Assembly: GCA_951406725.2 (NCBI GenBank)
Contig: OX597823.1
Location: 64,728,001 to 64,792,000 of the forward strand
DNA length: 64,000 bases
Source: Octopus vulgaris
Taxonomy: Eukaryota
Direction: 5' to 3'
In this document: positions 18,301-55,369 of the stretch, one piece after another
How positions within the stretch are numbered: position 1 is the first letter of the stretch
Layout: each line of letters begins with the position of its first letter
The notes under the pieces: generated by a model
The model's database searches: none
What the model was told of the DNA's origin: nothing
Seen by the model: only the letters and a program-made list of their open reading frames with translations
Position numbers and translations under genes: made by a program

Positions 18301-19331
18301 ATATATATATGTATATATATATATATATATATATATATATATATAAACATGCTCGAGTGAAAATATATATGAAAGAAGGTTTGAAAATGCAATTTTAAAA
18401 GATGTTTATTCACTTGACCGGTTTCACTTTTTTAGAAAAAGATTGTCAAAAGTAAAATGTAAAGCTTTGTAAAAGCTTTGTTGTGTTAAGTACTGGTTGT
18501 CACCAAATATTACAATGCATATATACATTCTTTGATAATAATAAGAAAATGTTAAAAACAGTTTACAAGGAAAAATCTTGAGAAAATATTTAAAAATTCT
18601 TTAAAAATATTAGGATTTCATTAAAAATCATATTTGTTTGGAAGTATCTATATATATACACAGACAATTATAAGTTCAAAAGAGGTCATTTTTGGTAGTA
18701 TATATATACACAGACAGAGATATATTTAGGAGTTTACAAAAAATTTGAGATGAACTGACCTGTTTTAGCATTTTTTTCATTTTCTGTGGAGCTAAAGGCT
18801 GATTACTATTTTAAGGGACAGTGTGGGAGGTTGGTTTCCATGGGGGGAAGGAAGAGCAATGTGGAATTGAAAGGATTTTTTTGTTTCTCTTTTATAGTTG
18901 GTCTTTCATGGCTAGTCTTTCACAGTTCAGTGGTTTTGGGGACTGGTCTTAGAGGTCAGAATGGTGGGAGTGTGTGTGTATATACATGTGTTTGTGTTTG
19001 TGTGTGTGGGTCGTTTTTGATTGGTCCCAGGGTTTATTGTGGTGTATGTAAATGTGTCTGTGTGTGTTTAATATTTGATAGTATGGTGTGTGTATATGTG
19101 TGCACATTTGTGTGTGTGTGTATATGTGTGATTAATATTTGTGATGGTGTTGTGTGTGCGCAAGTGTGTGTATATGTTTGCTCACATGTGTGTTGATCTC
19201 CGAAGAATTTGAACTTAGAATGTAAAGACAGACGGTCATAATATGCAAACATTTCTCATGGCACCAGTACACTGTTTATAGGTGCTTACATTTTTTATGT
19301 TTTTCCATGAATTTTTCATGCGTCCAGCTAG

Positions 19332-20560
19332 TTATTATTATTGAGTGAGAGAGCATTACAACCCATCAAAGTGATACTGAGGTACAAATATATGAAGTCC
19401 GATATACCAGTCATGACTACCTGTCTGGTAAAGGTACATTAGGCACATGCGTCACAACCATGGTGACCTTATATCAACACAAGCAGCATGTGTTCTTGCA
19501 GGTGGAGCCCATTTAGAATTTTCTTCTGCTCAAGTAGCCCATCTCACTCAAAAGGTCCCTGAGTAAGGTTTGTTTAAGGATGATGAATGAAACACTAACG
19601 TTTCGAGAAGTGAATTATCCAAACTTCAAAGAATTCCTCTCAACACCTGGCTCTGATGCTCTCCCACTACATGATCAGAGATGCACATATCATCAGCTAC
19701 TAAGGGACATGCTCAACTGGTTAAGGTCAAGTAACTGCCAAGAAAATCTGTGGTATTGAGCAAAATATTTACTGCAGTCCATTATTTTATACCAGACAAA
19801 TTATTATTATTATCATCATTATTATCATTATTATTATTATTATTATTATTATTATTATTATTATTATTATTATTGTTGTTGTTGTTGTTGTTGTTGTTGA
19901 GTGAGAGAGTAGCGCATGCCATCAAAGTGACACTGGGCTAAAATATACAAAGCCCAGTATACCTATCATGACTACCTGTCTGATAAGGGTACACTAGGCA
20001 CATGCATCGCAACCATATGTGCATGACATGGTGATCTCATATCAAGATAAACAGCGCATGACCTTACAGGTGGGTCCCAGTTAGAATTCTTTTCTGGTAT
20101 TATTATCATTATTATTATTATTATTATTATTATTATTATTATTATTATTATTATCATTATTATTATTATTATTATTATCATCATCATTCAATGAGAGAGC
20201 AATGAATGCTATCAAAGTAAAACAGGAGTACATGTATATGAAGCCTATCGTGACTGCCTGTCTGATAAGGGTACATGCTTGACAACCACAGGTGTGTAAC
20301 ATGGTGATCTCATATCAAGATAAACAGTGCATGACCTTGCATTATGAATTTTCTTCAGGTCAAGTAGCTGATCCCACTCAATGGGTCCCTGACTAAGGAT
20401 GATGAATGAAACATCCACATTTTCAAGAGTGAATTATTCAAACCCCAACGAATTTCTTTCAATGCATGGTTATGATGCTTCCCCACTACCACTCCTTGTG
20501 ATCTGATTTGTGCAAATCTTTGGTATTAAGCAGAATATTTGCTGTAGCCCTTCTTTTACA
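19332..20560 (-). mobile_element. Three tandem copies of a retroelement 3' end (family D), each with a (TAA)n tail
   Basis: gagtgagagagc...catcaaagtgacactg...ctgataagggtaca...atcaagataaacag recurs at about 19342, 19898 and 20191, each preceded on + by (ATT)n. Confidence 0.75.
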
Positions 20561-23274
20561 TGAAATGTATTATCATACGCATACATTATAACATTTCCAA
20601 TCAGTTTAAATCAGAATATGTCTATCTATCTATCTATCTATCTATCTATCTATCTATCTATCTATCTATCTATCTATCTATCTATCTATCTATCTATCTA
20701 GCCATATATATATATATATATATATATATATATATATATATACTTATGTATATATATATATAGAGAGAGAGAGAGAGAGAGTAAGAGAGAGCTTCCACAC
20801 AGTTTTTGTCTACCAAATTCAATTGCAAATCATTTGCCTGCATAGGGTTATAATAGGAAACACTTGCCCAAGGTGCCAAAGTGTGGGACTGAACCTAATA
20901 TCAGAAGGTTACAAAGTGCCTTTTTAACCATACAGCCTATTATTATTATTATTATCATCATCATCATCATCATCATCATCATCATCATTATTATTATTAC
21001 TGTTGTTGTTATTATTATTATTATTATTATTATTATTATTATTATCATCATCATCATTATCATCATTATTATTATTATTATTTTTATTATTTTAGTTTTT
21101 TTTGTCTTTTTATGCCACCCATTAAATCTTATAAATAAAAGATGCATGAAAAACTGAATCTTGTTGCCTTTATTGCTAGGCAACAAACACTCATGCATCC
21201 TCCCCCATGTAATATATTCTCACAATAAACCTGATGTTGTTAAAAAAAAAATAATAAAAGAATATACAAAAATCGAAAGAAACAAAAAAGACACTGCTAG
21301 GAAATAAAATATAACGTTTAAAAATAGATAAATAATCTCACACAAATTTAAAACAAAACATGCACAAAACCCAAAAGAAAAAAGCAAACAAACAAACAAA
21401 CAGATAAAACATAATAAAATGAGAGAAGATTTTTCTGAAGATTGTTTGATTGTCTGAAAATCTTAGTAAATCCCTCTGTTCATTTCATAAAACACAGGCT
21501 GTATTGACACAAGTGTTGTTGAATCATAAGAGAGAAACCATAATTATCTCTTACTTAAACATTCATGTATAAGCGAGTGACAAAACAAAAACCAAACGCA
21601 GTGAAAGAACATAAAAATATCTCTATGTACACACATAAGAATACACAAATATGCACACATACAGATACACATGCCAACATGTATATAAAAATGTCTTTGT
21701 GTGTGTATATACATGCATATATATATGTGTGTGTATGTATATACAGACATATATATGTATATGTATATATATATATATATATGTGTGTCTATATATATAT
21801 ATATATATATATACACACATGCATACATATATGTACATACACATATTATAAAATACACAAACACATCTATATATATATACATATATATATATATATATAT
21901 ATATATGTATGTATATATATAGAGAGAGACATTTGTATATCTATCTATGTATCTATCTATATATATATATATCCACACACACATATAGATATGTATATAT
22001 GAGCACACATACACACACACATGTGTGTGTATATATGAATATACATACATAGATAAATACATGTGTAATTATGTATATATGTGCATATATGTTTATATAC
22101 TTTATATACCTCCATACATACAAGTATGCACGCACATACATATATATCTATATATCTATGTATCGCTATTTCCTGCTCTACACACACACACACACACACA
22201 CACACACACATACACACACATATATACTTATATAGTAGAGTAAATGAAAAAGAAAAAATGTATAAAAATGCGTGTGTACACATTACATAACAAAGTGATT
22301 TTATTGTTGTAGTACCATTAACATACATTTGTACTCATTTACATACAAGCATGCCTACATATACATACACACAAACATACATAAATACATACAAAGAAAC
22401 ATATATAAATACATACAACGTACATACACAGACATTGCATATATTCACATTCACACGCAAGCATACATACACCTACTCATGTTTGCACTGGTGTTTTTGC
22501 TTTATTTTCTGTAATTTTTGAATCAAATACAATGCATAACTATTTTATAAGCATCGCCAAGTAAATACTTAGATTGCCAAAAAGTAAAAGAAATAAAATT
22601 AGATGAAGATAATTAAAGACATAAATTGAAGCACGATCAGCTGCTAAAGCAAACATAAACCAACCTCTCAATATATCATAAAATTTGAGAAACTGCTGAA
22701 TGAGATGTACTTTAAAATTAAAAAACCTCTTATATGGTTTTCTTAAAAGAGTGCTAGGATTTAATGATTAAATAAAATAGTTTGAACTAGATGCTAAATT
22801 AGTTTCAGGAACAATATATGTTTACTGTGGCTCAGCTATAAAGATAGCAAGAAGATATATTATTACTGCTTGTAATGTTTGTGCTTAAATGTTACACTTA
22901 AATCTATGTACAAGGCAAATGATAGGAGACGGGGAGAAACAAAGTGAGGAAGAGACAGAGGGAGATAGAAGGAGAGAGAGAAATAGATAGAGAGCGGGAG
23001 AAAATAAACAATGTCTGTGTATACATGCATACATACACAGATACATACTACTTCCCCAAAATATGGGCTCGGTCTCATTGCGTGGAAACTTGAGCAAGTG
23101 TCTTCTACTACTGTCTCAGGCCTTGAGAGTGAATTTGGTAGATGGAAGCAGAAAGAAACCTATTATATATATATACATATGATAATAATGAATTGAGGGA
23201 ATAGTATTCCAAACTTACAGGGAAAAATTCAATTTAGAAATACTAAATCAAATTTCACAAAATATAATATATAT

Positions 23275-23590
23275 ATATAAATTTGAAAAAACCACCTTTT
23301 ATCAATTCAAAATGAAAAATTAAATTACACCATCTAGAAAATGACATATAATAGAAATATTAAATATAAGATAAAAATAATATACCGATGATTAAGTAAT
23401 GTGCAAAATAATAAATAAAACATATATATTTGGTATATATAAGTTTTATTTATTATTTTGCACATTACTTAATCATCTGTATATCATTTTTTATCTTATA
23501 TTTAATATTTCTATTATATGTAATTTTCTTGATGGTGTAATTTAATTTTTCATTTTGAATTGATAAAAGGTGTTTTCTAATTTTATATAT
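23275..23590. repeat. Near-perfect AT-rich palindrome (arms about 155 bp) embedded in (TA)n
   Basis: caccttttatcaattcaaaatgaaaaattaaattacaccatc...gtaatgtgcaaaataataaataaaac is mirrored about a centre near 23431. Confidence 0.9.
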
Positions 23591-54770: not shown

Positions 54771-54917
54771 CAATATATATTTACTTTCCCACTAAATATT
54801 CACCCTATGTTCCCCTTTACAGGTTTATACCAAACTTATCCATCTAAAAATATTCAGTTTACTGTAATGTTCCATATACTTAACACCCAATAATATATTG
54901 GTGTATCTTCTTTCCTG

Positions 54918-55002
54918 CCTCTGATGAGATTCTGCTTTATAAAGTGATTTAATTATTACAATTATAATCTTTAAAGTATGAATTGAAACAGCTGTTAGAG
55001 AT
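54918..55002 (+). ncRNA. Hammerhead-ribozyme motif with extended stem II
   Basis: CTGATGA (54921), then GATTC tgcttta...taaagta t GAATT, GAAA (54985), CAGCTG, TT and AGAG. The core is canonical, ACAGCTGT is palindromic, and stem I is weak. Confidence 0.75.
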
Positions 55003-55369
55003 CATGATTATTTTTGTAATTAATAAATATACTTATTGATGTATCTCCACATTCTTATATTTCTTGAATAAATAAATCAATAAATATATATACTCATCTC
55101 TGTAATATATATATGTGCATGTATATATGTATATATATAGATATAGATATATATACATACACACACACACACACACACACTTTATTAACAAAGCTGGATT
55201 TGGTAGACGGAAACTGAAAGAGGTCTTTTTTATATATATACAGGATGCGATGAATAAACTGTTGTCTAAATTATGCAAAAATGAAAATTGCACTCACGAA
55301 TCATTCTAACATATATATTTACCAAAATGAACTAAAAATATCTTAAAATACTAAAGAGTAAGTTTAGTC

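Follow-up and report, generated by a model that had tools for sequence, protein, structure and literature searches.

A 64,000-nt stretch of the Octopus vulgaris genome (assembly GCA_951406725.2, contig OX597823.1, positions 64,728,001 to 64,792,000 of the forward strand; the whole stretch is called the window below) carries a type I hammerhead-shaped ribozyme motif in 10 insertions that represent eight sequence families, designated f, a, b (second copy i), j, c (second copy g), d, h and e. These insertions are quite probably the dead 3' ends, or pseudo-long terminal repeats (pLTRs), of several unrelated families of Penelope-like elements (PLEs), equipped with hammerheads whose palindromic stem III is predicted to permit cutting only when two ribozymes are paired. 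The motifs, their anchoring on (TA)n, the inverted pairs, a one-sided tail, a PLE remnant with GIY-YIG and N-terminal coding and the existence of multi-copy families are observed directly. One family, b, has U instead of A at core position 6. The hammerhead-bearing insertions are the following:

18346..18453 (- strand): f, core UUGACAA with C3 at 18449, stem III ACCGGU, four stem I pairs, GUC at 18416, (TA)n end
28830..29050 (+ strand): a, CUGACGA at 28835-28841, GAAA at 28964, 122-nt domain II, stem III ACAGCUGU, multi-copy family
29207..29420 (- strand): b, CUGUUGA (A6U) at 29368-29362, stem II GAGC/GCUC, stem III ACGU, stem I of 5 bp, (TA)n end
33424..33475 (+ strand): j, CUGACGA at 33428, stem III ACGUACGU, stem I of 4 bp, weak stem II
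35853..36086 (no single strand): c, inverted pair bounded by a (TA)n run on each side, intact hammerhead in the left arm, right arm 5'-deleted and with a tail of ~68 nt
C3 at 35944 (- strand): left-arm hammerhead of c, CUGAAGA, stem I of 6 bp, stem III ACUCAGAGU
44202..44318 (- strand): d, CUGAAGG (A9G) at 44315, damaged, 52-nt domain II, palindrome held by G-U, (CA)n(TA)n end
50077..50340 (no single strand): g, another copy of inverted pair c, each arm with a damaged core
51639..52103 (no single strand): h, decayed inverted pair, C3 at 51781 (-) and 51960 (+), 104-nt domain II, stem III ACAUAUGU
53512..53645 (+ strand): i, older copy of family b, CUGUUAA (U6 kept, G8A) at 53523, (TA)n end
54915..55105 (+ strand): e, perfect CUGAUGA at 54921, 57-nt domain II, stem III ACAGCUGU, only two contiguous stem I pairs

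The CUGANGA core is perfect in a, e, j and the left arms of c and h; f carries the U3-A8 swap, a natural variant already published (Cervera and de la Pena 2014, PMC4209133), and b and d show single changes. The original prediction, made from the letters alone, had placed this core in five unrelated contexts, which is strictly so for three of them (a, c and e), since b has A6U and d has A9G. Each of its coordinates marks a real feature, with reference points that are mixed: 28835 and 54921 refer to C3, 29336, 35884 and 44242 to the 3' end of stem I, and 18416 to N17. The copies that it called decayed or half are also genuine, being f with its swap, g as a damaged copy of c, the inverted pair h and the b copy i, and it overlooked j at 33428 (+), whose core is perfect. 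As it had proposed, stem III is usually a short palindrome, identified in a, b, c, e, f, g, h, i and j: ACCGGU in f, ACAGCUGU in a and e, ACGU in b and i, ACGUACGU in j, ACUCAGAGU in c and g, and ACAUAUGU in h. The stem III self-duplexes of a, c, e, f and j have predicted energies of -7 to -11 kcal/mol, and unconstrained cofolding, in a model that ignores the core, pairs two molecules through stem III in a, c, e and f.

The Penelope-type, (TA)n-anchored termini of the prediction were borne out. A (TA)5+ run lies within 150 nt 3' of N17 in 7 of the 10 insertions, compared with 8% of unmasked positions drawn at random (binomial p 3e-5 after the background rate was raised to 12%, in a test where the sites first noticed had partly been picked with TA in view). 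In the seven anchored insertions the predicted cuts fall 45-135 nt inside the element ends; therefore, cleavage does not set these ends. Three insertions (c, g and h) are inverted pairs. In c and g the left end is the same and so is the inversion centre, which lies ~10 nt upstream of C3; a further ~68 nt on the right arm only forms the one-sided tail of this family. The pair h is older, and its arms retain complementary halves of one motif with a 104-nt domain II, GAAACAUAUGUA being kept by the left arm and stem I by the right. A 3' end on (TA)n, an inverted truncated copy and a one-sided tail are traits of pLTRs, and all of them are present here. Other inverted structures in the window comprise a 305-bp AT-rich palindrome at 23279-23583, which is bordered by (TA)n at either end, shows no clear hammerhead core and could represent an inverted PLE pair lacking a ribozyme or else a miniature inverted-repeat transposable element, and arms of ~220 bp (78% alike) at 53869-54764 that flank an insert resembling a short interspersed nuclear element (SINE) with a 62-bp tandem.

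A PLE with GIY-YIG coding is present in the window as a broken element at 44858-47240:

44858..45499 (- strand): PLE 3' end, inverted, on (TA)n, with GIY-YIG C-terminal coding at 45251-45499 (tblastn E 4e-18)
44912-44952 (- strand): k, possible heavily decayed hammerhead, recognised by eye and folding only
45530..47240 (+ strand): putative Neptune/Nematis-type PLE open reading frame (ORF), 5' half, broken, with a GLKF motif and cut before the reverse transcriptase (RT) core

The GIY-YIG end is inverted against the N-terminal ORF (46860-47234), and k, a doubtful eleventh motif, falls within the end of this coding PLE. The frame 46974-47234 is 74% identical to an O. bimaculoides protein and 80% identical to an Octopus sinensis protein, which indicates an octopus-like host. 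Among the best 120 of 339 matches, the relatives of the ORF are proteins of 735-850 aa, many of them with both RT and GIY-YIG. Whereas the Hydra clade is characterised by RWK, DKT and a CxCX5C linker, this sole PLE ORF has GLKF, and its relatives carry GLKF and DKG, one of them (P0005) also a CX4CxxC linker. By the criteria of Craig et al. 2021 the Hydra clade is thus excluded for this ORF, and its sequence points to a Neptune/Nematis-type element. A short weak match to the PLE RT thumb region (E about 1e-4) was also noted at 34212-34355 (-). A 254-aa reverse transcriptase frame at 32667-33428 (+; PF00078, E 4e-25) abuts j, with no link between the two shown; from its motifs we take it to be CR1-like.

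A single course of events could give rise to such ends. A PLE protein would nick (TA)n DNA via its GIY-YIG domain, reverse transcription would start within the element RNA at a point 45-135 nt beyond the ribozyme site, and the RT would usually stop early and leave a short end. An inverted second copy would often be added, two start sites would produce the one-sided tail, and the palindromic stem III would pair two ribozymes. One conceivable reason why c and g invert at the same point is the self-complementary GGCC at their centre, through which a cDNA end might snap back on itself or anneal to another cDNA. It has been proposed that reverse transcription which halts early accounts for the short ends, and a second copy in inverted orientation for the pairs (Craig et al. 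2021, PMC8557442), and the layout of c and g corresponds to the Fig. 2 legend and section 6 of that paper. For the Poseidon element of Anolis carolinensis, an AT-rich nick, an internal RT start and a tail due to two start sites have been reported (Frangieh et al. 2024, PMC11167929), and two such sites would explain the tail in the c/g layout. The same work describes that cleavage by the Poseidon ribozyme requires protein and that ribozyme-dead mutants insert normally in vitro; unlike the elements considered here, Poseidon belongs to another clade and its ribozyme overlaps the ORF start. Pairing of two ribozymes through a palindromic stem III, with low activity in vitro, has been described for PLE hammerheads (PMC4209133). 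By analogy with these systems, the window motifs may fold as dimers and would be predicted to cut only in that form.

The core of family b sets it apart. Position 6 is U in both window copies (29368- and 53523+), so that the core deviates from strict A6; otherwise it fits the consensus of minimal hammerheads (min-HHR). Public contigs from 4 of 24 listed runs, none recorded as RNA, were aligned at 80% likeness to 28790-29430, a stretch that covers families a and b only, and their letters were tabulated (best 40 of 104 rows). The summed depth of family b is 14,000-70,000x that of the window-identical contig, and that of family a 7-123x, ratios that are not copy numbers and give orders of magnitude only. 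Family b thus appears very abundant, at roughly 10^4-10^5 copies as estimated from these depths, and its occurrence twice within 64 kb points the same way. At 29341 (N17) the commonest letter of the family b contigs is A (56-85% in the four runs), which makes GUA the cleavage triplet. At position 6 (29365) no common change was seen in the four runs among the best 40 of 104 rows. The top share is at least 41% in all 17 computed rows nearest the table cut-off; with no computed row below 41% and 29365 absent, the rows seem to be ranked by share and A6 would therefore stay below about 41% in each run. U6 is probably present in most public contigs of family b, and a minority A6 subfamily may exist. 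Between a and b, at 29052-29190, and in many other places lies a fragment of a dominant SINE-like repeat, with ~10x the depth of family b.

The abundance of family b bears on a reading in which b, and also the c/g palindrome, are non-autonomous short elements with master copies of their own, mobilised in trans by a PLE protein, a possibility that we take seriously and place somewhat short of even. By the above depth ratios the abundance of family b exceeds that of a by a factor in the hundreds, just 19 X1 contigs extend beyond either end of the 28790-29430 stretch, c and g have centre and ends in common, and non-autonomous PLE derivatives have already been published for Chlamys. Against this, the start points of the two b copies differ, as truncation would give, and the true 5' end of b is unseen, since the aligned stretch stops at 29430 and another repeat begins at 29449. 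Only family b is abundant enough to resemble a short element in its own right.

As a control for position 6, a pattern with the stem II shape of family b and with positions 6 and 7 free was run against metagenome contigs, in 8 of 64 parts. It matched 106 times in 105 metagenome loci, and 66 of the matches have a palindromic stem III and at least three stem I pairs. With N7 free, 64 of these 66 structured motifs show A6, two show C6 and none shows U6 (44 A6 and two C6 among the 46 distinct ones); U6 is therefore unusual among motifs of this shape. None of 55 matches of the control pattern in prokaryote genomes is structured. The exact family b patterns found no match in metagenome or viral contigs, none of 159 retrieved loci matched the window (blastn, E 1e-6), and position 6 sought via spuriously predicted proteins of family b yielded nothing. 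An A6U hammerhead family of PLEs was not found in the literature searched; Lunse et al. 2017, outside that search, may list position-6 variants. The metagenome loci (L001-L105) hold dozens of minimal A6 hammerheads with ACAUGU or ACGU palindromes, with an inverted pair in L002, and these hammerheads probably come from animal host DNA.

A natural A6C ribozyme cleaves at less than 0.1 per min (Perreault 2011), and single mutants of the CUGA turn were low in activity in a full mutational scan (Roberts 2023). From these precedents family b is predicted to cut poorly, its core change slowing or stopping cleavage. It has to be weighed whether U6 is instead a tolerated and selected slow-cutting variant, not a dead core, which we regard as rather unlikely. 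Stems I and II and the palindrome of b are intact, GUA is the usual contig triplet, and the A6C ribozyme does retain its low activity; yet simple descent also predicts intact stems in b, and both the weakness of the CUGA-turn mutants and the absence of U6 from all 66 same-shaped motifs speak against selection for such a variant. Most likely, family b derives from a master copy that turned U6 and continued to spread, cleavage not being needed for insertion. As dead mutants insert in vitro, a U6 master could spread unhindered. Whereas the dead cores of Poseidon were engineered, family b may be a natural case at high copy number.

The second peculiarity of the window is the length of domain II, which reaches 52-122 nt in four families (d 52, e 57, h 104 and a 122). 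In the window copy of a, GAAA stands 122 nt beyond the core and the first stem I pair is broken. Among family a contigs, N7 (28839) is variable (64% in X1), and 28848 and 28957 change to pairing letters (85% and 72% in X1) that create a sixth stem II pair, co-occurrence of the two within one contig not being shown. The first stem I pair is regained through the letter common at 28976 (69% in X1), and about half of the contigs have the triplet GUC (28975). From these common letters, the 122-nt domain II is therefore a trait of the family and not of a single copy. No PLE hammerhead with a domain II insertion longer than about 50 nt was found in the literature searched, and helix II measures 7-8 bp in the Schistosoma hammerheads of PMC4209133, unlike domain II of a, d, e and h. 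It is tentatively put forward, with somewhat less than even confidence, that b is a ~200-nt Penelope-derived element with tens of thousands of copies carrying CUGUNGA, and that octopus hammerheads with a domain II of 50-120 nt form a class missed by standard descriptors.

The window has 35% G+C and is rich in microsatellites and repeats, and chance matches have to be considered. A three-stem descriptor found 1, 3 and 8 sites at 0, <=1 and <=2 core mismatches, compared with 0.075, 0.83 and 6.85 sites in 40 local dinucleotide shuffles; the first two real counts were reached by 3 and 1 of the 40. A second descriptor (perfect CUGANGA, GAAA and a palindrome of at least 6 within 140 nt), devised post hoc once the long domain II of a was known, found 5 sites against 0.17+-0.48 in shuffles, and none of 200 shuffles reached 5. 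A further match of core plus palindrome at 19696 (-), with a palindrome of 4 nt only, is likely due to chance. At strict core levels, hit rates thus exceed those of shuffled controls, the comparison to which the original prediction had pointed.

Several observations weigh against the reading of these insertions as dead PLE ends with hammerheads. At <=2 core mismatches there is no excess over shuffles (8 versus 6.85), so that the excess is confined to the strict levels. The covariance-model search that had also been suggested went the other way: no Rfam hammerhead family reaches its gathering score in the window or in three focused scans, none of the sites being recognised, and no hammerhead stands among the 150 of 310 rows listed from a whole-window E-value scan. 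The 4-nt palindrome of b is worth just -1.7 kcal/mol, and the cofolded stem III register of c and e takes in stem I. No (TA)n lies near j or h. In about half of the family a contigs 28960 is C, which would break a stem II pair unless there is a hidden partner change, and letters at family level cover two of the eight families (a and b). RT/GIY-YIG coding is contiguous with a hammerhead end only at 44858-47240, where the ribozyme is the doubtful k, and no PLE coding match lies beside any other hammerhead end; the links of the families to autonomous PLEs would thus be drawn by analogy.

Among the weaker sites (d, j, k and h), it is improbable that several arose by chance in AT-rich repeat DNA. 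Relaxed descriptors do no better than shuffles, d, j and k are single-copy in the window, and Rfam recognises no site, but j and the left arm of h belong to the five sites with perfect core and long palindrome, a count reached by no shuffle, and the two arms of h have kept complementary motif halves. Least probable are non-LTR retrozymes (170-400-nt tandem repeats with canonical hammerheads and circular RNAs). They occur in molluscs, are proposed to use the PLE machinery, are similar in size and, like the elements described here, are short non-coding invertebrate repeats with type I hammerheads, a mollusc being among their hosts (PMC7229834). In the window, however, no hammerhead stands in head-to-tail tandem, the ends lie 45-135 nt beyond the predicted cut and not at it, and the motifs belong to the minimal and Hydra-table types and not to the canonical one. 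The families of retrozyme-like short elements postulated in the original prediction are accordingly not supported: single ends, inverted pairs and the one-sided tail are ordinary by-products of PLE insertion.

Interpreted as dead PLE ends, the insertions have close counterparts in print. Minimal hammerheads in PLE pLTRs, with their palindromes, U3-A8 variants, opposite-strand pairs and mollusc examples, have been described (PMC4209133). The window motifs share with them the type I topology, the extra base after A9, G10.1-C11.1 and the palindromic 15.2-16.2, and also the U-rich 5' and AU-rich 3' flanks, the mostly single truncated copies, the pairs on opposite strands 100-700 bp apart and the U3-A8 variant; U at position 6 in family b differs from that description. 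One supplement file of the paper contains no mention of "octopus". With the Hydra-clade PLEs of PMC8557442 they have in common the (TA)n target, a ribozyme placed some 100 nt before the 3' end and an 8-9-nt palindromic stem III, which in c is identical to that of Penelope-3_HM, together with the extra base on both sides of stem II listed in the Hydra table (a and f) and the inverted 5'-truncated copy.

That table includes a hammerhead on (TA)n for Hydra-1_oBim of Octopus bimaculoides, whose stem III is not above chance in the window. Moreover, 30 recently active Penelope families are reported for O. vulgaris (Bonar 2026), Penelope is among the expanded repeats of coleoids (Marino 2022), and 235 Rfam hammerhead hits have been published for the giant squid. 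The notion that such elements are poorly described in cephalopods is therefore only partly true, given these 30 families and Hydra-1_oBim, although six short motifs of the window have no match to an Octopus element in the supplement text of PMC8557442, where line breaks can hide matches. In the same supplement, a CUGUUGA with GAAAC ~30 nt further on can be recognised by eye close to the 3' end of the Octopus Naiad record before Naiad_Ovul; the Naiad clade is said to lack ribozymes.

Other repeats of the window include Tc1/mariner-type remnants at 11257-12497, 34741-35037, 43023-43815 and 56136-57275 (PF01359, PF17906 and PF13358 in three of the four, the 34741 frame being assigned by resemblance only), of which 11257-12497 and 56136-57275 are 80% alike. 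A repeat of ~400 bp is present in three copies that are 80-87% alike, at 23976-24254, 39396-39782 and 47929-48333.

The elements described here are of a known kind, and the abundant core variant and the forms with a long domain II are the unpublished part, as far as searched; the rest adds further members of a kind already described. The forms with a long domain II escape Rfam and short-stem descriptors and therefore matter for annotation, and this class, if real, could explain "half-core" motifs in elements said to lack ribozymes. The role of PLE hammerheads is considered unclear, and they may only ride along (PMC8557442). If our reading of family b is true, an abundant natural family with a changed core would allow the need for cutting by PLE hammerheads to be tested on the scale of a genome, U6 and A6 subfamilies being compared by age, copy number and cleavage rate.

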